The notes below the pieces were generated by a model, which was given only the letters and a program-made list of their open reading frames with translations, searched no databases and had not been told where the DNA came from. This document shows, piece by piece, positions 16,186-53,222 of a DNA stretch of 64,000 nt. Position numbers and translations under genes: made by a program. Origin of the DNA: Candidatus Woesearchaeota archaeon (GTDB lineage Archaea > Nanobdellota > Nanobdellia > Woesearchaeales > BM511); contig PKTL01000069.1 in NCBI GenBank assembly GCA_002867475.1, positions 9,382 through 73,381 on the forward strand, given 5' to 3'. Position 1 is the first letter of the stretch, and the number at the start of each line of letters is the position of its first letter.

Positions 16186-16297
16186 TAGCGGGGAGAGGAT
16201 TTGAACCTCCGACCTCCGGGTTTCTTGATCTCTGATCGAGAATTCGACCTTGGAGATATATGAGCCCGACGGGCACTCCTAGCTGCCCTACCCCGCT
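16186..16297 (-). tRNA. tRNA-iMet(CAT) with 37-nt intron (16222-16258) at 37/38
   Basis: AGCGGGG acceptor, GGG/CCC anticodon stem, CAT at 16260-16262, GGTTCAAATCC T arm. Confidence 0.92.
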
Positions 16298-40576: not shown

Positions 40577-40733
40577 AATTATACTAAGTTCTGGTTAAAT
40601 AAAAAGCTTTTGTCTTTGAAAACTTTTTTATAATATTGTTTTCATATAATCATTTATGGATAGCTATTATTTAAATCTTTCGATTATTTTGTCTTTCATT
40701 AGTAGTAACATAAAAGACTTGATTTCGAATTGT

Positions 40734-40753
40734 AACTAACATCGCTGTTACAT
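40734..40753 (-). repeat. Site S1, collapsed attC-like mini-site
   Basis: AACTAAC-ATCGCT-GTTACAT. Confidence 0.7.
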
Positions 40754-40917
40754 ACCCCGAAACAAAGTTTATGATTGACTTTAGTCCAATCAATAAACGA
40801 CTTGAGAGTGCAACGAGGTCGACTGAAGGGAGAAGTTTTAGAGCCCGAAAAAGAGTTAGTTTTTCAAAGTAGTGACAAACCGTAAGATTTATATTTAATT
40901 TAATCGTGCTTTTTATT

Positions 40918-41283
40918 ATGTCAAAAAATAACGAAAAAAATTTATCAACTATAATGTATCTTGCAGAACAACTTGGTATTAATCTTGATGATAAAAGAAC
41001 TGCTATTGCTACACCTGAAGAAATGAGCACAGCAAGAATGTATGATGGTTCTTTAGAAGCTAGAGTAATTCCTAATTCTAGACCTGCTGTTGAAATTGAA
41101 ACTCCAAGAGGTCCAGGAATTTGGATAGAATTAGTTGACCACACTAGAGATTTAGCTCCAGAAGGAGCAATATATCAAATAAGAACTTACGTACCTAAAG
41201 AAGATCATAAAGAAGGTTTAACTGGAGATGTTTATTCTGTTTATGTTGGGAAAACTGGAATTATGCTTGATTTGCCAAAATAA
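40918..41283 (+). CDS. Hypothetical protein (cassette A cargo)
   Basis: ORF filling the cassette; TTTATA box at about 40888. Confidence 0.7.
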   Translation: MSKNNEKNLSTIMYLAEQLGINLDDKRTAIATPEEMSTARMYDGSLEARVIPNSRPAVEIETPRGPGIWIELVDHTRDLAPEGAIYQIRTYVPKEDHKEGLTGDVYSVYVGKTGIMLDLPK

Positions 41284-41321
41284 GTTGATAATTCTGCATT
41301 GAAATAGGGCTCTAAAATTGT

Positions 41322-41341
41322 ATGTAACATCGCTGTTAAAT
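41322..41341 (-). repeat. Site S2, collapsed attC-like mini-site
   Basis: ATGTAAC-ATCGCT-GTTAAAT. Confidence 0.7.
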
Positions 41342-41497
41342 ACTCCGAGTCCGAGTTTAACTTGAACTTTAGTTCTAAGATTAAACGAAACGAGAGCGCA
41401 ACGGGACAAGGAGCGACTAGCGACGCAGAGTAAATTAGAGTCTTATTCTTCAAAAGAGTGAAACGATGCATTGAAGCTAACTTAAAAGGGCAATTTT

Positions 41498-41800
41498 TTA
41501 TTCAAATTTGATATTTTCATATTTTTTAAGATGTTTAGAACTATGCTTATATACAACATCATGATGTTCATAATCAACAAAAAATACGGTTCCGTCATCT
41601 CCAAAAAATAAAATTACATAAGAATTATTCACATGAACACGTTTAAATTTCTTTAAATCTTATGAAAGATTTTTATAATGATATAAATTATCTGAATTTA
41701 GAATTTCATCTCTTTTATTAAGAATATTTTGAAGCTCTTTTCCTTTAAGCTTCTTAAGAGCTTTCTTGAAAAGATTGCCATATTTTCTTTTTCTCATCAT
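41498..41800 (-). pseudogene. relE: RelE-family toxin with premature TAA at 41660-41662 (cassette B)
   Basis: Manual translation MMRKRKY...HYKNLS*DLKKFKRVHV...YVILF...DYEHHD.VY; similar to 42512-42775. Confidence 0.8.
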
Positions 41801-42045
41801 AAATTAGCTCTATCTTTAAGTTCCTTTTCAAAGATATCAGCTTCTTCGTCTGATAAAAAAGAATTAGCATCTTTACTATTCAATCTTTCTAAATATTCTT
41901 CTCTTACTTTGAAATTATCAAAGATTTTTTCACGTGCAGCTTCACGCATGAATTCTTGAACATTCAAAAAACCATGATTTTTAGCATATTCTTTAGCTTG
42001 TTCTAAAAAATCTTCAGATAATCTTAGATTTATTTGCGTAGTCAT
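41797..42045 (-). CDS. RHH antitoxin (cassette B)
   Basis: MTTQINLRL..QEFMREAAREK; overlaps the toxin start. Confidence 0.8.
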   Translation of the reverse strand: MTTQINLRLSEDFLEQAKEYAKNHGFLNVQEFMREAAREKIFDNFKVREEYLERLNSKDANSFLSDEEADIFEKELKDRANL

Positions 42046-42133
42046 AATATTATATGATATTACATAATATTTAAAACTATCGCTTAATCTTAAAAAATTG
42101 CCCATTTTCAAAAAAAAGACTCTAATTTATTGT

Positions 42134-42159
42134 ATTTAACATCAGGATCGTTGTTAGTC
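42134..42159 (-). repeat. Site S3, short attC-like site
   Basis: ATTTAAC-ATCAGGATCGTT-GTTAGTC. Confidence 0.65.
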
Positions 42160-42287
42160 AGTGAGTCTGCAAGACGAACGAAGGAGCGAATAGCGACTGA
42201 CAGTATGACGCAGAGAGCCGAACGGGCTTAAACGTAAAATTTATATATGATTAAATAACATTAAATAATATTATTTAAGGTGATAAA

Positions 42288-42515
42288 ATGAGTATAAAAT
42301 CTTTTAACGTCGATGAAGACACATATGGGAAATTTTCCTCTTATTGTAAAGAAAATGGGATAAGTATGAGTAAACAAGTGGAAACCTTCATGAAATCAAT
42401 GATTGAAGAAGATCCACAAGTGAAACAAGAATACCTAGAAAAATTAGAAAGAATAAGAAAAGGAAAATTCGTAAAAGTAAACAACTTTGCTGAGAGATAT
42501 GGATTAAAAGAATGA
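42288..42515 (+). CDS. RHH antitoxin (cassette C)
   Basis: KSFNVD...F..YC...G..MSKQVE; ATGA overlap with the toxin. Confidence 0.8.
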   Translation: MSIKSFNVDEDTYGKFSSYCKENGISMSKQVETFMKSMIEEDPQVKQEYLEKLERIRKGKFVKVNNFAERYGLKE

Positions 42516-42775
42516 GTTATGAACTTGAAATCCATGAAGATTTAGATAGAACTTTTTCTAAACTTTCAAAGAAAAATAAGAAACAATTAGAAATAATCTT
42601 CAAAAAAGTTGATGAAATTCTAAAAAATCCATATCATTACAAACCTCTTCGTGGAGACATGAAAGGTTCAAGAAGAGTTCATATCGATAAACACTTCGTT
42701 CTAATATATGAAATTCTTAAAGAATCAAAAGTTGTTCGATTACTAGACTATAATCATCACGACAAAGTTTACTAG
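42512..42775 (+). CDS. relE: RelE/YafQ-family toxin (cassette C)
   Basis: NP.HYKPLRGDMKG.RRVHI...VLIY...HHDKVY. Confidence 0.9.
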   Translation: MSYELEIHEDLDRTFSKLSKKNKKQLEIIFKKVDEILKNPYHYKPLRGDMKGSRRVHIDKHFVLIYEILKESKVVRLLDYNHHDKVY

Positions 42776-42797
42776 TTCGGCTCTTGAGTAATATTGT

Positions 42798-42886
42798 AAC
42801 TAACATCGCTGTTAAATGAGGTTTTCTGATAAGAAAATCTGGAAGAGCGCCGAGCCGAGGCGCGAATCATTTAATCGCTGTTAGAC
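42798..42886 (-). repeat. Site S4, full attC-like hairpin (89 bp)
   Basis: TAAC-A-TC-GC..TTAAATGA...TCATTTAA..GC-T-GTTA with two internal sub-hairpins. Confidence 0.85.
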
Positions 42887-43007
42887 GACCCGAACCATAC
42901 AAAGTGAAGGTGAGAGCGCAGCGTGGCAAGAAAATCTATGATTTTCGCAGAGTTCTTTTGTTTGCCCGTACATAAATTTAAATAGTTACTTTGAATTAAT
43001 AATTATA

Positions 43008-43850
43008 ATGGTTTCACTTAATAAATATCTTAATATTCTTCAAAGAGGAATTGATAACTTTATTAGTTTTGAATCTAATTCAATTTTAGAGAAAAAACAA
43101 TTCCAAGCTAATTTTAATAGTGATGAAATTGAAAAAATCATCGAAGTAATTGAAAATCAAATCAAAATCATAAAAAAAGCGATTAAGCATGCAGATTTTT
43201 ATCGAATTCATCTTGAAGTTATGAATAATAAAGAACTTGTTGCATACATGGAAATTAACAAGAGAGTTCCATATTTTGAGTTCCGTTATAATCAAGTTTT
43301 TTCTCAACAAAAAAAAGTGATGGAGAAAAGATTAAAAGAATTAAGTAAAGAACAATCTAAAGCAATCAGTTCATGGAATTCAATAATAGGAATCTTTAAT
43401 ATATTCTGCAACGAATCATTACATTTACTAAAAAAACAAAGAAGATATTTAGAAAAATATGAAAAAAATCCTGCAAAATATACAAAGAAAAGTTTGGGAA
43501 ATAAAATGAGGAAATTTCTTAAAAATGACTTTGAAGGATTATTAAAAATTGAGGAAAAATTATTTTTAACTGTTCTTTATTCAAGTAAAAAAGAATCAGA
43601 GAATTTGAGAGAATTTGGTAAGGAAATTGAAAAATTATTACATTTAGAGGAATTCAAAATGTATCCTCATATCCCTGGTTTAGTCCTAAACATTTTTCCT
43701 GAGGCAGGTTTATCAGATATAGCATCTGCACCATTTCATGCAGCAGGATTTTTTCTTAGTATAATTCAAAGAACCAACAAATATTACAAAGAGTGGAACG
43801 AATTCATTAAAGATAATGCTTTAAAGAGCAAACAAAAGAATTTTGTCTAA
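43008..43850 (+). CDS. Hypothetical helical protein (cassette D cargo)
   Basis: 280-aa ORF whose TAA stop lies in the GTCTAAC core. Confidence 0.75.
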   Translation: MVSLNKYLNILQRGIDNFISFESNSILEKKQFQANFNSDEIEKIIEVIENQIKIIKKAIKHADFYRIHLEVMNNKELVAYMEINKRVPYFEFRYNQVFSQQKKVMEKRLKELSKEQSKAISSWNSIIGIFNIFCNESLHLLKKQRRYLEKYEKNPAKYTKKSLGNKMRKFLKNDFEGLLKIEEKLFLTVLYSSKKESENLREFGKEIEKLLHLEEFKMYPHIPGLVLNIFPEAGLSDIASAPFHAAGFFLSIIQRTNKYYKEWNEFIKDNALKSKQKNFV

Positions 43851-43933
43851 CATCGCGATTAAGAGAAGTTATTTTGCAAAAATAATTTGGATGAGGGCGC
43901 TGCAAGGCCCGAATCTCTTAATCGCTGTTACAT
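43845..43933 (-). repeat. Site S5, full attC-like hairpin (89 bp)
   Basis: TAAC-A-TC-GCGATTAAGAGA...TCTCTTAATCGC-T-GTTA. Confidence 0.88.
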
Positions 43934-44043
43934 ACCCCGAAACAAAGCTTAACTTGTCGAAGACTAAGATTAAGCGACTTGAGAGTGCAACGAGGTCGAG
44001 AATTTATGAAATAAATTCGAAGAAGTTTTGTTTTTAGCGCCGT

Positions 44044-44298
44044 TTACAATTTCTTGTAAACCTTGCTTCGATGATCTGCATGAATGACATATATAATCAA
44101 TTTATTATCTTCAATGTCAGCGATTACTCTGTAATCTCCAACTCTTAATTTATATTCAGAACGACTTGATAATTTTACAAAGTAATGATGAGGGTTTTCT
44201 TTTGTTTCTTGAAGCTTCTTAAAAATTCTTTGAGAAATGTCTTTAGGTAATTTTTCTAAATATGTTGATACTTTTTCATCGAAAACTAATTCATACAT
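44044..44298 (-). CDS. relE: RelE/ParE-family toxin (cassette E)
   Basis: ENP....KL....YKLRVGDYRVI...HR..VY. Confidence 0.92.
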   Translation of the reverse strand: MYELVFDEKVSTYLEKLPKDISQRIFKKLQETKENPHHYFVKLSSRSEYKLRVGDYRVIADIEDNKLIIYVIHADHRSKVYKKL

Positions 44299-44299
44299 T

Positions 44300-44539
44300 T
44301 TACAATCCTAATCTTTTAGACATTTCTGCTTCAGAAACTAAATTTCCTTGTTTGATACGTGCTCTTGCTGCTTCAATAGCTTCAATAGTTTCTTTACTAA
44401 GCTCAGGTTCATCTTTAACATGTTTTACAATATGAACTAGTTTAGTAATCACTTCATCATAACTTTCATTACGATATTCTCTAAATTTATCAAGTTCGGA
44501 CTTTGTCCCGTCATGAATTTTAATAGTTGTCGCAGTCAT
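44300..44539 (-). CDS. Antitoxin (cassette E)
   Basis: TTIKI...K..L...ESYDEVI..L; directly upstream of relE. Confidence 0.8.
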   Translation of the reverse strand: MTATTIKIHDGTKSELDKFREYRNESYDEVITKLVHIVKHVKDEPELSKETIEAIEAARARIKQGNLVSEAEMSKRLGL

Positions 44540-44626
44540 TTTATATCACCTTTGAGTTTACTTCAGTATACCATAGTAAACTAAAGTATATAAATGTATG
44601 CTTTAAGGCGCTAAAAACAAAATTGT

Positions 44627-44688
44627 ATGTAACTTCGGGTTTTGACGAAGTTTTTCGTCAGAAAAATTTTGTTTAAACCCTGTTACGC
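44627..44688 (-). repeat. Site S6, attC-like hairpin (62 bp)
   Basis: GTAAC-T-TC-GGGTTT...AAACCC-T-GTTAC. Confidence 0.8.
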
Positions 44689-44969
44689 GAACCGAAAGCC
44701 TTTTGCTGAGGGAAGTTTTTGCTCGTGCTAATCTTAGTCAGACATACAATAATATATTATTATACTATGTATAATATATTATGTATGGTCTAGACTATCA
44801 AGATTAGTAGCACAGGAGTCAAACCTCCTTAGCACACAAAAAGTCTTAGTTCGAGCTCCACAGGGCTTGAATTTCGTAAAAAACTTTTTACGATGACTAT
44901 TTGCTTCTGAAATCGAAGCAGGCAAAAGCTATGCTGCTATTTTGTGCTAGAGCAAAAATTTTGCGTAAC
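44682..44969. other. Gene-less, highly structured cassette F
   Basis: No ORF in the track; nested inverted repeats across its length. Confidence 0.75.
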
Positions 44970-45056
44970 ATCGCGATTAAGAGAAGTTATTTTGGAACAA
45001 AATAATTTGGATGGAAAAGTCTGCAAGACTTTGGAATCTCTTAATCGCTGTTAGTT
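44963..45056 (-). repeat. Site S7, full attC-like hairpin (94 bp), close relative of S5
   Basis: Same outer stem as S5; different inner hairpin (AAAGTCTGCAAGACTTT). Confidence 0.88.
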
Positions 45057-45137
45057 TCTTCTGATAAGAACGAGGAATAACTGCAAGTGGTTTTTGACGA
45101 AGTCAAAAAATTCCGAAGAGTAATTTTTAGCCCCCAT

Positions 45138-45557
45138 TCAATATCTTTTAGTAATATAAAGAGTAGCTTTAAAATTATCAATATCTCCAGTTGAAAGAAA
45201 TCTACTTTCTAAACTTGGACCTAAGTATAAATTAGAAGTTTTATCAGCAGTAAAATTAGGCACTGGCATAATTCCTGCACACCCCATATACCCATCTTTT
45301 AGCTTTAATAATAAATCTTCTTCAGGTTCATCAAATTCAACCCCTGTTTGACTTAACATAAAATCAACTGGCGTAGAATAATTTTCTGCAAGTGAATATA
45401 ATCCTCTTCCAACAATAAAAATTGGACCTGTCATCACGATATGTTGAGGATTAAAAGGCATATCCTCTCCAGACATCATTCTTTGTGAGATTTCATTTCT
45501 CATAGATTCAATTGCAGCTTCAACAAAACCCATATGAATTGCGTTATTATCTTTCAT
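45138..45557 (-). CDS. Hypothetical protein (cassette G cargo)
   Basis: 139-aa ORF filling the cassette. Confidence 0.7.
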   Translation of the reverse strand: MKDNNAIHMGFVEAAIESMRNEISQRMMSGEDMPFNPQHIVMTGPIFIVGRGLYSLAENYSTPVDFMLSQTGVEFDEPEEDLLLKLKDGYMGCAGIMPVPNFTADKTSNLYLGPSLESRFLSTGDIDNFKATLYITKRY

Positions 45558-45622
45558 AAAAAGTGTAACTACTAAATAGTTTATATACTTTTCTTTTTTT
45601 AAAGGGGGCTAAAAATTATTGT

Positions 45623-45708
45623 AACTAACATCGGAATTTAACGAAGTCGCCGAAGGCGATTTGGGAAAAATGCGAGCCGAGCATTTTTCCGTTAAATTCC
45701 TGTTAGCC
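45623..45708 (-). repeat. Site S8, full attC-like hairpin (86 bp)
   Basis: CTAAC-A-TC-GGAATTTAACG...CGTTAAATTCC-T-GTTAG. Confidence 0.88.
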
Positions 45709-45941
45709 GACCCGCAGCTACGAGCGATGTTTTGAGCGGAGTGGCAAGGGCAAGGTTTAACTTGCTTGCAAGATTAAACCGCAGAGTTTTCTTACTGCCG
45801 AGAACTAGATAGGTGCCGTAGTTTTAACTTACTTTAGAAAAATCCTATACATAACGAGTGAAACGAGACAAATTAGTTCGCTAGAACTGGGGGCGTTCTT
45901 AAAAAAAATATTTTATGTTTAATAATTCATGAATTATTTTA

Positions 45942-47402
45942 TTAACATTTAATTGTGAATTTAATATTTATTGTTGAAGGGATATCTATTTCTATAAAAT
46001 CTGCTCGTAAAATTCCATTTTCTTCTATTCGAAATTGTGCATTAATTATATCATCATACTTATTTTGACCTAATTCAATACCACATTCTTTATCATCGCA
46101 CCATGAAGTATCTCTTTGAATATTTGTTGTGGTGTTTAAAGCATTTAATTCCATAAAACATTTTGATAAATTGTATTTATTTTCTTCCAATCTATATATG
46201 TATTCCCTATAATGTCCTACTGAATAATTTAATTTATTATTAATATAAATGCTTACTTTACAAGTATTATTTTCACAAGTTGTTAAATCATCATATTCAT
46301 ATCTTTTATTTCTATCTTCTTTAACAAAACCTTTAAGGATTAATTTTGAAATATTTTGATCTTTAATTTTAAATTTATTAAATTTTAATAGAATCATACC
46401 TTTATTTTCATTTAGCAAAATTTTTTCAAATCCGAATCTATCGAAAGAATCTTTTAAATTATTGTTTGAAATATCATAAAACCCATCAATTATTTTATTA
46501 TTTTTATCTGTTAATAATTCAAATTTATCATCATGATCCGCACTAGTATCTATATTATATTTTCCATAATTTATAGGTATTAGAGGTATAGTACTTGTCA
46601 TTAATCCAAAATTATTTTTGATTTTAATGGGGACTTCAATATTTCTATAAATATATTCACTATTGCCATGGTCAATATAATAATTTACTAATTTTTCATC
46701 ACCATATGAAAAAAATGGAATAGATATTATTGTTGATATTATACCTAATAAAATTATAATAGGAATTGCATAAATAATAAATTTTTTAGTATTAAAATTT
46801 TTTGCTAATTTTTCATTTTTATCCTTTTTTAGAAATTCCTTGATTGATTTATCAAAATTATTAAATATTGATTTGAAATAAACATTATAAATAATAAAAC
46901 AAATCATCAAAAGCATTAAAAAGAGTATAAATAATATGATTCCCTCAGCCAAAAATTCATGTAAATAAGGAATTAATGCAATAATAATAATATTTTTGAT
47001 GAGAATTATTAGAAAAAATAATTGGATAAATAATAAAGATATAAACCAATTTCCTAAATCTTTTTTTGAACATTTATGTTTGTTACGATAAATTATAAAA
47101 AAAATAAAAATAAAACCTATTCCTGCAAAAATAATCCCTAATTGTGTGATTTCCCAAGACTTAGAAATGTCAAAATCTAAATTAAACCTATTGCTAAAAT
47201 AAGTTCCTAAAAAGAAAGTAAATAAAGCAGTTATAAATAAAAAAAGCCAAATAACTATTAAATCAATTACAGAATTAGAATTATTCAATTTGAATTTTCC
47301 TTTATTTTGGAATTTTGACCATAGTAAAAAAGTTAATAATATTGAAACTACTAAATACCCAGGCATATTAACCAAAAGATCAAATAGATTTTCCCAACCC
47401 AT
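45942..47402 (-). CDS. Multi-TM membrane protein with soluble C-terminal domain (cassette H)
   Basis: 486 aa, very AT-rich, several TM segments. Confidence 0.7.
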   Translation of the reverse strand: MGWENLFDLLVNMPGYLVVSILLTFLLWSKFQNKGKFKLNNSNSVIDLIVIWLFLFITALFTFFLGTYFSNRFNLDFDISKSWEITQLGIIFAGIGFIFIFFIIYRNKHKCSKKDLGNWFISLLFIQLFFLIILIKNIIIIALIPYLHEFLAEGIILFILFLMLLMICFIIYNVYFKSIFNNFDKSIKEFLKKDKNEKLAKNFNTKKFIIYAIPIIILLGIISTIISIPFFSYGDEKLVNYYIDHGNSEYIYRNIEVPIKIKNNFGLMTSTIPLIPINYGKYNIDTSADHDDKFELLTDKNNKIIDGFYDISNNNLKDSFDRFGFEKILLNENKGMILLKFNKFKIKDQNISKLILKGFVKEDRNKRYEYDDLTTCENNTCKVSIYINNKLNYSVGHYREYIYRLEENKYNLSKCFMELNALNTTTNIQRDTSWCDDKECGIELGQNKYDDIINAQFRIEENGILRADFIEIDIPSTINIKFTIKC

Positions 47403-47539
47403 AAAATTATTTATTAAATCTTTTATTTAAAAAGCTTTCTTGTGAGTTTGCAAAGATTGGGATAAATTTCTCAATTATTTATCCCAAGACAGCGTTTAAA
47501 AAAGAAAGAGTTATATAATTAAATAATAAATTGAAATAG

Positions 47540-48205
47540 ATGTCAGAAAAATTAACAGGTTCAGAAATTGAAAAAAAAGTATATGAACACATTATAAAAA
47601 GTGTTGGTATGGGTTATACTACTGACTTTAATCCTTTAAATTTATCTACAGAAGGGATTGCTGATTGTCTTGGTTTATCAATGGAAGAAGTTGAAGAAGC
47701 AATCAACAAACTAAAAGGTGAAGGTGAATCAACCAATATTGAGAGAATAGAATCTGTGAAACCTAAATTTGAAATTTGGTTACCTAAAACTAAAAAAGGT
47801 AAAGAAGTTTTAGATGAATTATGTAATTCAGGCGTTGCTATTAAAGGTTCAATGCAATGGTTTTACACTTTTTTACTTTTGGCAGCTTCATATATTTTCA
47901 CATTTGAAAAACCATACTTAGCAAATGTGTTAGAATTAAAATCATTTAATGAGTATTTTGTATGGGCTGTTATTTTTACAGGGATTTCATCATACTTTGG
48001 AAGTTATTTGGCTCATAAATGGCATCAAATAAATTATGAAATGGAAAGAATAAAAGGCGGCAAATATTACATTTATGCATTTATATTATTGATTTCAGGA
48101 ATAATATATAGTTGGATGAAAGAAATAGATGTTGCACTTATCATTACAAGTGTAGGAACAATAGCAAATTTGGTATTAGTAATATATCAAATCATAAAAA
48201 AATAA
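47540..48205 (+). CDS. HTH-like N-terminus plus TM protein (cassette H)
   Basis: STEGIADCLGLSMEEVEEAI segment followed by TMs. Confidence 0.65.
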   Translation: MSEKLTGSEIEKKVYEHIIKSVGMGYTTDFNPLNLSTEGIADCLGLSMEEVEEAINKLKGEGESTNIERIESVKPKFEIWLPKTKKGKEVLDELCNSGVAIKGSMQWFYTFLLLAASYIFTFEKPYLANVLELKSFNEYFVWAVIFTGISSYFGSYLAHKWHQINYEMERIKGGKYYIYAFILLISGIIYSWMKEIDVALIITSVGTIANLVLVIYQIIKK

Positions 48206-48206
48206 A

Positions 48207-48917
48207 ATGGCAAAGAAAAAATCATATGAAGAAGGGAGTATTGCAGATTTTGCAGCTCAGGGATTAAAAAATATTAAGAAATTATCAGGAAGTTCTTTAA
48301 TGAGTGAAAAATTAGTTGGTTTAAGCACATTTTTATTTTCATTGGTATTTACCTTTAGTTTCGGTAAATGGTTAATACAACCCGAACAGTTATATGAAAT
48401 AAGTTCAGTAGTTATTTTAATTTTAGGATTAATGATTGGTCTAGGATTATCTTCAGGTTATTCATTTATATTGTTAGCAATTTCAGACTTTGCAAAAGAT
48501 AAAATTCAAAGTTTAAGATTAGGAATTGTTTTCTTATTTATTTCAATTCCTTTGTCAATAGCGGGATTAGCATTAAATTCAAACTTTTTCATAGCTTCTA
48601 GTTGGATATTAATTGTTGTTCAACTTGCATTAATCTTGTTAAGTTTCTTTTTTAGCTTTTCATCTCAGAGCATTCCAGATATTAAAGTAAATGCTTCAGG
48701 TATATGGAAATCTATAGGTAGAGCTGGGTCAATTGCAAGTATATTAGGTTTAGTATTGGCTGTTTTAGTAATACTCGCACCACAATATTTCGGACAAACA
48801 TTATACCAATGTATTGATGGAACTGTTCAAAAAAGTTTAGAAGCATGTCCAAATATAAAAGAATATTTAGTCACATTTGCTAAAGAACAAGGATATAATT
48901 TAACTAATATTAACTAA
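48207..48917 (+). CDS. Membrane protein (cassette H)
   Basis: Multi-TM ORF. Confidence 0.65.
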   Translation: MAKKKSYEEGSIADFAAQGLKNIKKLSGSSLMSEKLVGLSTFLFSLVFTFSFGKWLIQPEQLYEISSVVILILGLMIGLGLSSGYSFILLAISDFAKDKIQSLRLGIVFLFISIPLSIAGLALNSNFFIASSWILIVVQLALILLSFFFSFSSQSIPDIKVNASGIWKSIGRAGSIASILGLVLAVLVILAPQYFGQTLYQCIDGTVQKSLEACPNIKEYLVTFAKEQGYNLTNIN

Positions 48918-48944
48918 ATTAAAAAATATGGGGAAAAAATAAAA

Positions 48945-49250
48945 ATGGAAAATAAAGAAATATTTATTCAAGCTATAAATGAAAAAAAGAAAGTGAAAGT
49001 GAAAATCAATACTGATGAAAAAGGAATTATTATAAGAGATTGTATTCCTTTTGATTTCGGAACTGGTAAATTGCCAGGAATCAGATATCATTTTCTCGAT
49101 TTAACTAGTCCTGATGGACCTCACAATTTATCTGTTTTACCTAATAAATTATTAGAAATTGAAATTTTAGATGAAACATTTAATCCTGCTGATTACATTA
49201 AATGGAAACCTAATTGGAAATTAGCAAGAGATTGGGGAGAATTTTCTTAG
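48945..49250 (+). CDS. Hypothetical protein, possibly WYL-like fold (cassette H)
   Basis: AI..KK.V.....R.C.P.DFG....I.IL.ETF.P pattern resembles stand-alone WYL-like proteins. Confidence 0.55.
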   Translation: MENKEIFIQAINEKKKVKVKINTDEKGIIIRDCIPFDFGTGKLPGIRYHFLDLTSPDGPHNLSVLPNKLLEIEILDETFNPADYIKWKPNWKLARDWGEFS

Positions 49251-49496
49251 ATTTTAAGAACGCCCCTTTTTATTTTCTTTTTTTTCTAAAGTAAGTTAAA
49301 ATTTGGGTGGAGTGCGAGGTTTTCTCGTGCGTAACCGTTAAACATTTGTTAGATACAATCTTTCCAATGTATATTATACGAAGTTTTTTCTAAGCCTTCT
49401 CCTCTATGAGAAGAGCTTTCCCTTTTAACGAAGGCACCTACCTTTTTAGATTCCCGGGCACGTTTTGTCGTCTACAAAAGGCAGTAAGAAAATTTT

Positions 49497-49540
49497 GGCT
49501 AACATCTTTTAGGTGAATTTTTATGAGAATAAAAGATGTC
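49497..49540 (-). other. Candidate attI-like primary recombination site
   Basis: Minus strand CACCTAAAAGAT-GTTAGCC; last core before the integrase, with no closing GTTA box. Confidence 0.6.
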
Positions 49541-49596
49541 TTTTATTTTTAAGTTAAAACCCAGTTTTAGGTTTTGATATGTTTTTTGCTAAAGAC

Positions 49597-49797
49597 TTAT
49601 TTGTCTTTAGCGTGGCTGAGAAGCTCTTCATGGAGAAGCTCAAGCTTTTCAATTGTTCTTATGTGCATGTCTTTCATGACTGCGAACTGATATTTTTTAC
49701 TATTGTCTTTTTTTAGTAGCCAGTTCAACTTATTTGATAATCCTATTATTAGATCTTCATATTGTGTTAAGAGTTCGATTGCTTGTTTTTTATTCAT
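49597..49797 (-). CDS. Small hypothetical protein pointing into the array
   Basis: 66 aa, GAGGTGAT RBS at 49803-49810. Confidence 0.6.
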   Translation of the reverse strand: MNKKQAIELLTQYEDLIIGLSNKLNWLLKKDNSKKYQFAVMKDMHIRTIEKLELLHEELLSHAKDK

Positions 49798-49824
49798 TTT
49801 ATATCACCTCGATATGGCTAAATT

Positions 49825-49950
49825 CACTGGACAAGACAGCTCATGTAACCTTCGATTATGAAATAATCGATTGGTTCAATGAATGTTGTTGCAGTCCTGC
49901 TTTGTTATCGAGGTGAATTGAATAAAAATAGAGGCAGTGGACACTGGACA
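49825..49950. repeat. CA(C/G)TGGACA repeats, left cluster (49825, 49935, 49942)
   Basis: Same motif as the 51974-52042 cluster. Confidence 0.6.
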
Positions 49951-50014
49951 TAGTCAAATGAGATTTAAAAATCATAGATAACATTTAAATAATATGAGTG
50001 GCTATAAATTGAAT

Positions 50015-50233
50015 ATGACAAAATACACGGCATTTATACAAAAAGATGAAGATATGTATGTTGCTACATGTGTAGAACTTGGCACGGTTAGTCAAGGATA
50101 CACGGTTGAAGAAGCATTAGATAATCTAAAAGAAGCAACCGAACTTTACCTTGAAGAAATGCCAGGAGAAGAAGTTTCTGATTATTCTTTTACTACCACT
50201 TTTGAAGTTGGTGGTAAAAGTGTTAAAGCTTAA
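50015..50233 (+). CDS. hicB: HicB-family antitoxin
   Basis: YVA.C.EL...SQG.T.EEAL.NL.EA.ELYLE. Confidence 0.9.
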   Translation: MTKYTAFIQKDEDMYVATCVELGTVSQGYTVEEALDNLKEATELYLEEMPGEEVSDYSFTTTFEVGGKSVKA

Positions 50234-50450
50234 AAAAATTTCTGGAAAAAACTGTGTTAAACTAATTTGTAATAAGTTCAGTTTTAAATATGTTAGGCAA
50301 TCTGGAAGTCATATAATTCTTAAAAAAATAAGTGGAGATACCACAATTACTTGTGTTGTTCCTAATCATTCTGAAATTAAAATTAACACTCTGAAAGGAT
50401 TATTAAAACAAGCAAAAATTAGACAAGAGGATTTTATAAAATATCAATAG
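50220..50450 (+). CDS. hicA: HicA-family toxin
   Basis: RQSGSH....VVPNH.EI...TL...LKQA; GTG start after GGTGG. Confidence 0.88.
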   Translation: MLKLKKISGKNCVKLICNKFSFKYVRQSGSHIILKKISGDTTITCVVPNHSEIKINTLKGLLKQAKIRQEDFIKYQ

Positions 50451-50460
50451 AGGTGATAAA

Positions 50461-51237
50461 ATGAATGTGTCAAAAATAATATTTGATAAATTGTTTATTC
50501 AAGGTTGTAGTATGAAAACCATAACTGCTTATGAATTGCAGCTAGAAAAGTTTCTTGAGTGGGTTGATAAGCCTCCATTAAAAGTCAAACAAAAAGATAT
50601 TGAAGAGTATACCAAATATCTAAGAAGAAATGATTATGCCCATTCAAGTATTAGGCTTTCCCTTAATGCTATCAAATATTATTTTGTGAAAATAATGAAG
50701 AGAAGGTTTGAGATTTCCATGCCTAAAAAACATGAGAAACACACAGGCGTTTGTGATAGAAATGAGATTGTTGAAGCAATTGATAATTTAAGAAATCCAA
50801 AGCACAAATTACTTCTTGCATTGCTATATGGTTCTGGTGTTCGTGTTAGTGAAGCTGTAAAGATTAGGCATGATGATATTTTTGATGATTATGCAGTTAT
50901 CAGGCAAGGTAAAGGAAGTAAAGATAGAAAGATAATAGTTTCTGATATTTTTCTAGAATTATATGAACCTTTTAAAAAAAGAAAAGGTTTTGTTTTTAAT
51001 GGTAGAAATTCTCATTTGACTGTTAGAAGTGTTCAAGAGATAGTTAAAAAAGCGTTTAAGGATAGACATGTTCATCCTCATATGTTAAGAGCAAGTTTTG
51101 CAACGCACCTTTACGAGTCAAGTGTTGATAAGCATAAGATCCAAAGATTACTTGGTCATAAGGATGTGAGAACTGTTGAAGTTTATACTAAGTATTCAAA
51201 GTTCGATCCAGAAGTTAAAAGCCCTTTAGATATTTAA
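50461..51237 (+). CDS. Tyrosine recombinase, integron-integrase-like but without the IntI-specific insertion
   Basis: LLYGSGVRVSE, GKGSKDR, HMLRASFATH, LLGH, VYT; C-terminal KSPLD. Confidence 0.93.
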   Translation: MNVSKIIFDKLFIQGCSMKTITAYELQLEKFLEWVDKPPLKVKQKDIEEYTKYLRRNDYAHSSIRLSLNAIKYYFVKIMKRRFEISMPKKHEKHTGVCDRNEIVEAIDNLRNPKHKLLLALLYGSGVRVSEAVKIRHDDIFDDYAVIRQGKGSKDRKIIVSDIFLELYEPFKKRKGFVFNGRNSHLTVRSVQEIVKKAFKDRHVHPHMLRASFATHLYESSVDKHKIQRLLGHKDVRTVEVYTKYSKFDPEVKSPLDI

Positions 51238-51289
51238 AACATTTAAAAAAACAATAAATTTAAATATTTAGATTATCTAAATGTTTGCT

Positions 51290-51553
51290 ATGGGAACTAT
51301 AACTGTAAATGTATCGGACGAGACTGAAAAAATGTTTAGAGAAGCTGTAAAACAAAATATTGGAATAGGAAAGGGGGTCCTCGGAAAAGCTATAGGCGAA
51401 GCTATGAATATGTGGGCTGAAGAAAAAGAAAGAGAAGAAAGAAGAAGAAAAGCTATTGAAAGACTTGAGAAAGGATTTGATTTAGGGAATTTTTCTTATA
51501 AGAATAGAGAGGAATTATATGGAGATAGATTTAAAAAGTGGGATAAAAAATAA
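51290..51553 (+). CDS. VapB-like antitoxin
   Basis: MGTIT.NV...E..FR...W; GF.LG...REELY; upstream of the PIN gene. Confidence 0.75.
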   Translation: MGTITVNVSDETEKMFREAVKQNIGIGKGVLGKAIGEAMNMWAEEKEREERRRKAIERLEKGFDLGNFSYKNREELYGDRFKKWDKK

Positions 51554-51971
51554 TATTGAGAAAAAAGTTTTTATTGACACTAATATTTTTATTTATGCTT
51601 ATAATAATGAGAATTCTAAAAGAAATATTTGCTTGCAGATTGTTAAAAACTTATTTAAAAATAAAATTTCATATATAAGTATTCAAACATTAAGTGAACT
51701 TTCTAATGTTCTATTACACAAAATGAAATTATCCAACTTGGATTTAAATGAAGTTATATATGAATTGGTCGAATTTGGAAATCTTTGTGAAATTAAATCA
51801 AGCACAATTATTAAAGCAATAGATATACATAAAAAATTTAAGATTCATTTTTTCGATGCACAGATTGTTGCTACTATGATTCAAAATGGTGTTGATACAA
51901 TATATACTGAAAATGTGAAGGATTTTTCTAAAGTTCCTTTTATTAAAGCTATTAACCCTTTAGATATTTAA
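51519..51971 (+). CDS. vapC: VapC PIN-domain toxin
   Basis: FIDTNIFIY, FFDA.I.A, IYTEN.KDF, NP. Confidence 0.88.
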   Translation: MEIDLKSGIKNNIEKKVFIDTNIFIYAYNNENSKRNICLQIVKNLFKNKISYISIQTLSELSNVLLHKMKLSNLDLNEVIYELVEFGNLCEIKSSTIIKAIDIHKKFKIHFFDAQIVATMIQNGVDTIYTENVKDFSKVPFIKAINPLDI

Positions 51972-52042: not shown

Positions 52043-52151
52043 TTCACGCTTAAGCCTTTTAAACTGTTTTTCCCATAAATGAAATTATGATTAAAAATTT
52101 CAATCAATTATTAAAGCAAATTTTATATATGAGGCGATAAAAATGAAAACT

Positions 52152-53222
52152 ATGGGAATGTTTGATGACATGTTAAAGCAAGGAGAATCCTTGTTCAAGG
52201 ACGCAGTAGCATTAGATTATGATTATATTCCCAAACTTGTTCCTTTCAGAGAGACTCAACAAAGGTTTGTTGCTGAAAGCATTAAACCATTATTTAGTCA
52301 GAGAAACGGCAAGAACATGCTTATTCATGGACCGCCAGGAATCGGTAAGACTGTTGCTGTAAGACATCTTCTAAAAGAGTTAGAAGAAAAAACTGATGAA
52401 ATAGTTCCAATTTATGTTAATTGTTGGCAGAAAAATACCACTTTCAAGATACTGATGGAGATCTGTGACCAGTTAGGATACAAGTTCACACATAATAAGA
52501 AAACGGATGATCTTTTCAAGATAATTGAAGACTACTTAAACAAAGATAGTGTTGTTTTCGTCTTTGATGAAGTTGATAAGCTTGAAGATGAAGATTTCTT
52601 ATATATGATATTAGAAAAGATTTACAGAAAAACAATATTGTTGATTACGAATTATCAAGAATGGCTTGTGAATCTTGATGAGAGAATCAGAAGCAGACTT
52701 ACTCCTGAACTTTTAGAGTTCAAGAAGTATAATGGTAACGAGATAAAAGGAATACTTAAACAAAGATTAAATTATGCTTTTGTCGATGGAGCACTCCAAG
52801 ATGATGCTTTTAATGAGATTGCTAAAAAAACTATTGAGATGAGTGATATAAGACAAGGTCTTTACATGCTAAAAGAAGCTGGAAATATTGCTGAAAGCAA
52901 GTCTAGTAAATCTATTTGTTTAGAACACGCAACTGAAGCTATTAAGAAATTAGAAGAATTTACGATAAAGAAAACCGATGATTTGGAGACTGAAGAAAGA
53001 GTTATATTAAACATTGTGAAAACTAATCCTGGTAAAAAGATTGGTGAGCTTTTTGAGATCTATCAATCTAATGGAGGAGTTGGAGTGTATAAGACTTTTC
53101 AAAGGAAGATAAAAAAGCTTGCCGATAACAGATTCTTACATGTGAAAAAGGTTACTGGTGGAAAGGATGGCACAACAACTATTGTGAATACTCCCCAAAG
53201 TACTAAATTAACTGATTTTTAA
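52152..53222 (+). CDS. cdc6: Orc1/Cdc6 replication initiator
   Basis: L..DY.P...P.RE, GPPGIGKT, VNC, DEVD, RIRSRL. Confidence 0.92.
   Translation: MGMFDDMLKQGESLFKDAVALDYDYIPKLVPFRETQQRFVAESIKPLFSQRNGKNMLIHGPPGIGKTVAVRHLLKELEEKTDEIVPIYVNCWQKNTTFKILMEICDQLGYKFTHNKKTDDLFKIIEDYLNKDSVVFVFDEVDKLEDEDFLYMILEKIYRKTILLITNYQEWLVNLDERIRSRLTPELLEFKKYNGNEIKGILKQRLNYAFVDGALQDDAFNEIAKKTIEMSDIRQGLYMLKEAGNIAESKSSKSICLEHATEAIKKLEEFTIKKTDDLETEERVILNIVKTNPGKKIGELFEIYQSNGGVGVYKTFQRKIKKLADNRFLHVKKVTGGKDGTTTIVNTPQSTKLTDF

Follow-up and report, generated by a model that had tools for sequence, protein, structure and literature searches.

A window of 64,000 nt from a Candidatus Woesearchaeota genome (GCA_002867475.1, contig PKTL01000069.1; "the window" hereinafter refers to this whole stretch of DNA) was analysed. 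The genome consisted of 1.67 Mb in 84 contigs and was 95% complete; the window's own contig was 73.6 kb, and the G+C content of the window was approximately 31% overall. Eight cassette-like units were identified on the + strand (40747-49503, within an array region of 40730-49541), and a gene encoding a tyrosine recombinase of the Xer/IntI group was found downstream of them. An earlier sequence-only reading had described the locus as an integron-like cassette system in which the sites, the integrase and the cassette ends all depart from the canonical architecture, and this description was supported by comparative genomics. The comparison set comprised 401 sampled genomes, all from the order to which the window's genome belongs. 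Genomes flagged as unpublished were included in the tallies over this set.

Cassette units and junction sites

Each unit started with GTTA followed by 2-5 variable letters and ended with the exact reverse complement of its own start. Cassette ends were located by a script and compared as the start versus the reverse-complemented end, GTTA being counted in. The eight units, with their open reading frames (ORFs) where no family or pair is described below, were as follows:

Cassette A, 40747..41328, + strand: ends GTTACATAC/GTATGTAAC; 125-aa ORF on the + strand without a Pfam family; same shell type as cassette E
Cassette B, 41335..42140, + strand: ends GTTAAATAC/GTATTTAAC
Cassette C, 42153..42804, + strand: ends GTTAGT/ACTAAC
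Cassette D, 42880..43851, + strand: ends GTTAGAC/GTCTAAC; 280-aa ORF on the + strand without a Pfam family
Cassette E, 43927..44633, + strand: ends GTTACATAC/GTATGTAAC
Cassette F, 44682..44969, + strand: ends GTTACGC/GCGTAAC; 288 nt, ORF-less, with a long internal palindrome ("empty shell")
Cassette G, 45050..45629, + strand: ends GTTAGTT/AACTAAC; 139-aa ORF on the - strand without a Pfam family
Cassette H, 45702..49503, + strand: ends GTTAGCC/GGCTAAC; 3.8 kb with nested terminal inverted repeats; ORFs of 486 aa (-) and of 221, 236 and 101 aa (+)

All of these self-complementary end pairs were as the sequence-only reading had written them. The perfect runs between start and end were 9, 9, 6, 7, 9, 7, 7 and 7 for A to H (sum 61), a sum reached by just 4 of the 40320 permuted start/end pairings, namely the swaps of A with E and of C with G (identical ends). 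The complementarity of a cassette start to its own inverse core, which characterizes crossover within the R box of canonical integrons, was thus found in 8/8 cassettes, with runs of 6-9. The two cores facing each other within a junction matched over 4-5 bases only in 7/7 junctions, which agrees with the earlier observation that they usually match just over the TAAC/GTTA part. The junction words TAACATCGCTGTTA and TTAATCGCTGTTA had three exact matches each in the 1.67-Mb genome, all of them inside the array.

In addition, the cargo was closely flanked by a further inverted repeat, 9-16 nt long and lying inside the outer ends, in 8/8 units (non-cognate pairings: mean 6.7, maximum 12). A conserved element of 60-140 nt followed the GTTA core in most units, and a GYGCARYG or GTATGACRCAG motif was present within about 110 nt after the core at 32/58 sites, with 0/58 on the opposite strand. 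The shells were conserved and the cargo was variable: A and E shared a shell, and the ends of H recurred in at least three other genomes with other cargo. Two further genomes had an identical shell type with other end letters, which still matched their own far end (GTTAAGTT with AACTTAAC in L033; GTTATATT with AATATAAC in L039).

Five junctions contained an attC-like hairpin (J4-J8) and three were collapsed (J1-J3); one simpler hairpin closed the array. A covariance model (R1) built from 30 full sites, taken from the window and 14 other genomes, was used to score them:

J1, 40730..40746, + strand: distal boundary; R-box half TTGTAACTAAC and spacer ATCGCT, no hairpin; R1 20.8 bits, weak
J2, 41318..41346, + strand: collapsed; GTATGTAAC-ATCGCT-GTTAAATAC in dif-like 11-6-11 geometry; R1 22 bits
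J3, 42130..42164, + strand: collapsed; TAAC-12 nt-GTTA; R1 19.8 bits
J4, 42794..42891, + strand: attC-like hairpin; R1 72.7 bits; DNA fold -15.3 kcal/mol, z -3.16
J5, 43841..43938, + strand: attC-like hairpin; R1 84.1 bits on the + strand and 21.3 on the - strand; fold -17.4 kcal/mol, z -4.64
J6, 44623..44693, + strand: short, degenerate attC-like hairpin; R1 31.6 bits; fold -10.4 kcal/mol, z -2.78; TAAC/GTTA ends unpaired
J7, 44959..45061, + strand: attC-like hairpin, 89% like J5; R1 82.1 bits; fold -19.4 kcal/mol, z -6.84; repeat family D1
J8, 45619..45713, + strand: attC-like hairpin; R1 81.2 bits; fold -22.5 kcal/mol, z -5.99
Terminal site, 49493..49541, + strand: recombinase-proximal, candidate attI equivalent; TTTTGGCTAAC followed by the hairpin ACATCTTTTA..TAAAAGATGT

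The element at J4-J8 was 56-103 nt long and read TTGyyyyTAAC ATCGCG ATTAAGAGA AGTT(hairpin 1)AATTTGGR..(hairpin 2)..GAA TCTCTTAAT CGCT GTTAyyyy. The DNA of J4, J5, J7 and J8 was predicted to fold with R and L stems of 5 bp (TAACA/TGTTA) and 12 bp, respectively, a bulge of 2 nt and, internally, two mini-hairpins. The bulge (TC) lay between the R and L stems in the 5' arm of the folded strand, and the spacer was otherwise paired. The GNA mini-hairpins that had been named on the + strand (GTCGAAGAC, GACGAAGTC, GCCGAAGGC and GTCTGCAAGAC) were all read there. The imperfect palindrome of attC (R''-L''...L'-R' with AAC/GTT and a single-strand fold) was found in the alignment, in the pair counts and in the DNA folds (z -2.8 to -6.8), and the paired spacer, the one bulge and the two mini-hairpins would set the sites apart from the canonical model, as had been claimed.

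In the alignment of 30 sites, 24 pairs were predicted (RNAalifold), 14 of them with compensatory changes. A larger alignment of 60 R1 matches came from 22 sources (the window and 21 loci of the order) and had been fitted to the model, a procedure in its favour; 97.2% of its cells paired and 15 pairs changed on both sides, which was equalled in 0/500 shuffles, and slid partners gave 28-50%. Hairpin 1 contained a G.T pair in its stem at 59/60 of these sites, for which the opposite strand would give C.A. Moreover, the + strand (as oriented by the model) was the more stable one at 58/60 sites under DNA parameters, and triloops were far more frequent on the + than on the - strand (C-GNA-G, 78 vs 8; T-GCA-A, 40 vs 8). 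R1 scores were 72-84 bits on the + strand and about 20 bits on the - strand. The covarying L stems, together with the strand-specific G.T pair and GNA loops, indicate that a single-strand fold is under selection. The + strand is the folded strand as judged from these counts, and the sequence-only assignment of it to the bottom strand of attC is upheld. GNA triloops of the GCGAAGC type are unusually stable in DNA, which would favour a DNA fold over an RNA fold.

Among site pairs with a core identity of at least 0.9, some of which were tandem copies, the right flank was at least 0.8 identical in 6/6 and the left flank in 1/6. On the + strand, the hairpin is accordingly part of the cassette to its right, and the 5' TAAC on the folded strand would be the best position for the crossover. 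The opposite arrangement, in which + is the top strand and the hairpin is part of the left cassette, was dropped after the strand-bias counts and the flank comparison. A scan of the window's genome with R1 (E <= 0.001) gave four strong matches, all in the array and none elsewhere. An Rfam scan of the window, with a database that holds no attC family, gave no family at the array and a tRNA as its only match.

The recombinase and its linkage to the sites

The gene downstream of the array was the following:

Tyrosine recombinase, 50461..51237, + strand: 258 aa; member of the Xer/IntI group in which the IntI-specific insert is missing; has the R, K, HxxR, H and Y motifs

The protein contained the phage-integrase catalytic domain (PF00589, 6.9e-30) and an N-terminal SAM-like domain. 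Its best NCBIfam family was archaeal XerA, at 171.8 bits, under the cut-off of 220. For the integron integrase family (TIGR02249), 132.1 bits were obtained versus a cut-off of 265, with matches at model positions 7-168 and 242-313; positions 169-241 were unmatched, indicating that the IntI-specific insert is absent. The best solved relatives were XerA of P. abyssi (98 bits, one stretch) and IntI4 of V. cholerae (91.8 bits, two stretches). These results substantiate the description of the enzyme as IntI-like and non-canonical, and it is probably an XerA-derived paralog rather than an IntI. Two further tyrosine recombinases were encoded in the window's genome, neither of them a full XerA; the array enzyme was the sole full-length Xer-like gene. 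A palindrome of dif type (CGTATAA-N6-TTATACG) with fewer than two mismatches was not found in this genome, which has the array-type copy only.

Homologs of the recombinase were present in 280/401 genomes, with 1-3 copies each. Canonical IntI was detected above the TIGR02249 cut-off in 0/401 genomes, and the matches listed broke near model position 180. A tblastn search of plasmids yielded Xer-like genes in 770 records; none of the 40 matches listed was of IntI1 type. A recombinase scan of the metagenome contigs gave no relative, the A/E shell word was likewise absent there, and the attC word was not found in viral contigs.

The 14-mer TAACATCGCKRTTA of the site was present in 59/401 genomes (G183 and G245, flagged as unpublished, among them), mostly in 1-5 copies, and a reversed control word was rare. 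At least 120 species-level records contained a 23-mer of the site. Judged by their titles, 96 records were archaeal, including 60 Woesearchaeota, Pacearchaeota or Nanoarchaeota, and 24 were bacterial, the titles being taken as given and mis-binning being possible.

In all loci that had both sites and an Xer-like gene (17/17), the sites were on the gene's sense strand and upstream of it. These comprised the window, 7 of 20 loci fetched by site word, 4 of 20 fetched by recombinase and 5 of 20 from a second recombinase batch (L242 weak, 26.3 bits). Six of the 20 site-word loci were cut by the contig or locus end downstream, and linkage was found at 7/11 informative loci. Among 120 named loci of metagenome-assembled genomes (MAGs; <=8 kb), 13 had a recombinase homolog, on the same strand in 13/13 and downstream in 12/13. 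The test that the sequence-only reading had proposed, a covariance model searched across related genomes, thus linked the sites to one recombinase clade in many genomes of the order.

The 17 site-linked Xer-like proteins all fell within one 29-row clade of a 55-protein tree (SH-aLRT support, 97), and this clustering of labels was matched in 0/500 shuffles. One row of the trees and of the motif alignment (L072 from G206) was flagged as unpublished; no claim depends on the unpublished genomes alone. In contrast to the site-linked proteins, 8/8 copies with an upstream dif-like palindrome (CGTATAA-N6-TTATACG, <=300 nt upstream of non-array XerA copies; L060, L063, L064, L070, L073, L224, L235 and L241) were outside the array clade. 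An xerA-adjacent dif-like palindrome recalls the XerS/difSL arrangement. Eleven genomes had one recombinase copy in the array clade and one outside. The RVSE, GKGxKDR, HxLR, LLGH and Y motifs were conserved in both clades.

The terminal site also had counterparts. A site of its type (TTGyyyyTAAC and either A.CTATTA or a short perfect hairpin) was also present in other genomes, where it preceded the recombinase gene by 100-260 nt, and its motif followed the recombinase subclade, being A.CTATTA-like in 7 loci and T.TTTATATAC-like in 5. Of the attI-like array end that had been proposed, the conserved terminal hairpin stands; the attI role is that of a candidate, the hairpin lying about 960 nt and a HicAB pair away from the gene.

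Two side observations concern the homologs. Many recombinase homologs on the + strand began 100-2000 nt from the contig start, as if assemblies break upstream of them; such breaks fit a repetitive or strain-variable array, yet at least one dif-type copy (L070) was alike. At L195 (G041:C55), a very divergent tyrosine recombinase (branch length 3.5-4) was encoded about 600 nt after a terminal cassette containing a homolog of the cassette E cargo, and other recombinase types may occur at array ends too.

Interpretation of the array

With moderate confidence, we consider the locus to be a chromosomal integron-type cassette platform of a Woesearchaeota-type (DPANN) archaeon, served by a dedicated XerA-paralog recombinase rather than by canonical IntI. 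The anatomy, the covarying fold, the strand bias, the linkage of the sites with one recombinase clade and the lack of canonical IntI in the sampled genomes are observations; from there we infer that the recombinase acts on the sites, that the crossover lies where it was placed above, that the chemistry is single-stranded and that the system is active at present. In the proposed mechanism, the + strand, which is the sense strand of the recombinase gene, would fold as single-stranded DNA, the R stem (TAACA/TGTTA) having 5 bp and the L stem 11-12 bp, with a TC bulge of 2 nt and two GNA-triloop mini-hairpins. The R arm, the spacer of about 6 nt and the L arm would imitate a Xer-type core site, and the recombinase would swap strands inside the conserved TAAC/GTTA core. 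We propose that strand exchange in the core leaves half an R box at each cassette end, which would give rise to the cassette-specific complementary ends.

The locus resembled integrons in its tandem short cassettes rich in toxin-antitoxin genes, in imperfect-palindrome sites with ..AAC/GTT.. cores, a single-strand fold and homogeneity within the array, in cassette starts complementary to their own far R box, and in a recombinase gene at one array end whose sense strand is the folded strand. Along the bottom strand, a canonical integron is laid out as array, terminal site and integrase gene in sense, which matches the order in the window. On the other hand, the window's recombinase lacked the IntI-specific insert, and its sites had a paired spacer and one 2-nt bulge where the canonical form would have an unpaired spacer and extrahelical bases. 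The two GNA-triloop mini-hairpins, the 60-140-nt conserved element and the inner inverted repeat flanking the cargo, the three hairpin-less junctions, the ORFs in both directions and the hairpin at the terminal site were further differences. From XerA/dif systems the locus shared a simple two-domain tyrosine recombinase with intact active-site motifs, for which XerA was the best family and the best solved relative, and a core geometry of arm, about 6 nt and arm; in this order a dif-like palindrome also sits just upstream of xerA. It differed from them in that the protein scored below the XerA cut-off and belonged to a clade apart from the dif-linked copies, and in that nine related sites formed one array rather than a single 28-bp dif.

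A different explanation is that the units are Xer-dependent modules, comparable to integrative mobile elements exploiting Xer (IMEX) or to the pdif modules of Acinetobacter plasmids, which are exchanged as double strands at dif-like 11-6-11 cores while the hairpins have another purpose. Toxin-antitoxin cargo is common in such modules. They are likewise discrete and bounded by Xer-type sites, which the collapsed junctions resemble: J1 and J2 read TTGyyyyTAAC-ATCGCT-GTTAyyyy, which is the 11-6-11 geometry reported for dif in bacteria and archaea (PMC8371274), and deletion of a hairpin between its flanking half-sites would yield exactly the J1/J2 sequence. The enzyme is also a simple Xer-type one and the only full-length Xer-like gene of the genome. 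However, the covarying L stems and the strand-specific G.T pair and GNA loops indicate a selected single-strand fold, the array-linked enzymes are distinct from the dif-linked XerA copies, and a reaction on double strands alone would have no use for complementary letters specific to each cassette. IMEX and pdif modules rely on housekeeping XerC/D of the host and on double-stranded sites, whereas a dedicated paralog, strand-biased hairpins and a polar array were found here. We judge this explanation unlikely.

The array could also be an ordinary cluster of attC sites lacking integron-integrases (CALIN), inactive or served in trans by the IntI of other cells, with the Xer-like gene as a bystander. 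The AAC/GTT cores and the palindromic R/L scheme are retained in its sites. Integrons were reported in 75 archaeal MAGs, with Nanoarchaeota among the phyla, and most of them were CALINs (Ghaly et al., 2022; PMC9668308); for 539 attC sites that survey gave six IntIs, each of which reportedly has the IntI-specific domain, and bacterial IntI1 was reported to recombine archaeal attCs. A bystander gene leaves unexplained why strand and position were the same in 17/17 loci and the strand in 13/13 MAG loci, as well as the separate recombinase clade and the terminal-site motif that tracks its subclades, and no canonical IntI scored above the cut-off in the 401 genomes. This explanation is, to our judgement, somewhat less probable again than the Xer-dependent modules. 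Foldback elements (like miniature inverted-repeat transposable elements) or structured-RNA genes piled in one hotspot, without integron-type exchange, would account for the long imperfect terminal inverted repeats of every unit, for the ORF-less palindrome F, for shell ends conserved between genomes around differing cargo and for a fold that is also readable as RNA, but they are very improbable, given that transposase-type elements predict the same end letters in each copy instead of unit-specific, self-complementary ones, that the array is a single locus (four strong matches, all inside) polar to the recombinase gene, and that no Rfam family was found at it.

Several points weigh against a dedicated integron-type platform. 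Three of the eight junctions have no hairpin, the extrahelical bases of canonical attC sites would lie on the arm opposite to the bulge of the window's sites, and the fold may be read as a structured RNA. Between the terminal site and the recombinase gene lie about 960 nt that include the HicAB pair, and 4/11 informative site-word loci had 6-10 kb downstream without a recombinase. Twelve members of the array clade had no detected upstream site (7 of them with less than 1.3 kb of upstream sequence). The recombinase tree was a quick search with a midpoint root and no outgroup, and the two clades, with median lengths of 278 (array) vs 273 aa (other), showed no clade-specific insert or diagnostic residue. 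Neither circles, recombination products nor an alternative cassette order were seen in the assembled contigs of one run, which drop rare variants, and megablast among the arrays of 24 loci gave no whole shared cassette and one 255-nt shell piece at 93%; mobility is therefore argued from anatomy alone. In addition, the window's enzyme lacks the domain that Escudero et al. (PMC4792948) describe as specific to bacterial IntI for the single-strand pathway.

Contigs of the probable source metagenome covered the array continuously at a depth of about 12-17, with joints at 46480>46807 and 49834>49905, off the cassette boundaries. Loose contig ends at 45089/45121 came from other cassette-like sequence. 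For the right end of cassette F (44823-44966), two metagenome alleles (depths 10.8 and 7.2) were present, with 10 substitutions and 3 indels between them. Two further runs of the source study contained next to no array words. The recombinase locus of G139, which is without sites, shared no DNA with the array locus of G006 from the same genus.

More broadly, and tentatively, DPANN archaea may have evolved a gene-capture machine of their own, in which an insert-less XerA paralog recombines folded hairpins that mimic a dif-like core. If so, integron-style capture of cassettes would be possible without the IntI insert, which Smyshlyaev et al. (PMC8138268) call essential for integron function, the system would be widespread and extend to the 59/401 genomes with the site word and the species-level records with the 23-mer, and most published "integrase-less" archaeal arrays of this lineage would have an integrase adjacent. 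Should the enzyme be the recombinase of the array, it would represent a second way, probably an independent one, in which gene capture arose from chromosome-dimer resolution, would answer who services the archaeal arrays, and would provide a minimal enzyme/site pair with which to study how recognition by tyrosine recombinases shifts from the sequence of DNA to its structure. Natural integron anatomy is here consistently tied to a plain Xer-type recombinase, while integron integrases have been defined by an extra domain deemed essential for attC. Archaeal attC arrays, mostly integrase-less, were already known (PMC9668308); the recombinase linkage and the site architecture appear to be new. In the available text of that survey, Xer appears as a tree outgroup only, and a literature search with the survey's supplementary attC/IntI lists outside its scope returned no report of archaeal cassette arrays linked to an Xer-type recombinase or of this site architecture.

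Cargo and neighbouring genes

The following toxin-antitoxin genes were identified within the cassettes and around the recombinase gene, together with repeated words upstream of it:

41797-42111, - strand: cassette B, ribbon-helix-helix (RHH)/CopG-like antitoxin, intact
41498-41803, - strand: cassette B, ParE/RelE-like toxin frame, with one in-frame stop (41659/41660) splitting it
42288-42515, + strand: cassette C, antitoxin
42512-42775, + strand: cassette C, ParE-family toxin
44044-44298, - strand: cassette E, ParE toxin
44300-44539, - strand: cassette E, antitoxin
49825..49950, + strand: two CACTGGACA words, upstream of the hicBA-recombinase block
49994..50450, + strand: HicB-like antitoxin and HicA toxin
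51281..51971, + strand: putative antitoxin (without a family) and PIN-domain (VapC-like) toxin, 3' of the recombinase gene

The array cargo, consisting of two ParE-family pairs, an RHH antitoxin with a broken toxin, family-less ORFs and an empty palindromic unit, is typical of chromosomal integrons, and the cassette ORFs were oriented both ways. Homologs of the B, C and E cargo were common in the order, array DNA being matched in 137/401 genomes. Few cargo homologs were in cassette form: a loose end-pair test gave 6/29, several of these being A/T-rich chance pairs, so that the figure is no measure of arrays. A homolog of the cassette E cargo (82% nucleotide identity) was in another genome's cassette with different end letters. 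A copy of the cassette B cargo, 68% identical, was found outside the array in the window's own genome (G000:C16:25930-26503), and the toxin-antitoxin genes already present in the lineage seem to be the source of the cassette cargo. The four proteins of cassette H had no homolog in any fetched locus. The G+C content fell to 20% at window positions 46001-47000, in cassette H, over the gene for the 486-aa membrane protein, which had no Pfam family.

The word CACTGGACA was present on the + strand at 49825, 49942, 51974, 52018 and 52034; it brackets the hicBA-recombinase-vapBC block and abuts orc1/cdc6. The genome contained 26 copies, several of them paired on other contigs (C16, C21, C30 and C63), versus a rough chance estimate of about 4. 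We take the word to resemble an archaeal origin-recognition box, and its role may be that of an origin box, of an operator or of an accessory repeat that the recombinase binds. An 8-base core, ACTGGACA, occurred on either strand within 400 nt upstream of 12/29 array-clade recombinase genes vs 1/25 others. The idea that CACTGGACA marks a replication origin only was discarded, since it was also found upstream of array-type recombinase genes in loci without a Cdc6 match.

An Orc1/Cdc6 gene (52143-53222, + strand; TIGR02928, 187 bits, above the cut-off), which identifies the window as archaeal, directly followed the recombinase block, and the array may lie beside a replication origin in the window's genome. 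With the window's Cdc6 as query, tblastn gave no match in the other fetched loci. Further, the tRNA call of the Rfam scan was at window positions 16186-16297 (- strand; 112 nt, 46.3 bits), where ARAGORN gives none; it is probably an intron-bearing archaeal tRNA.

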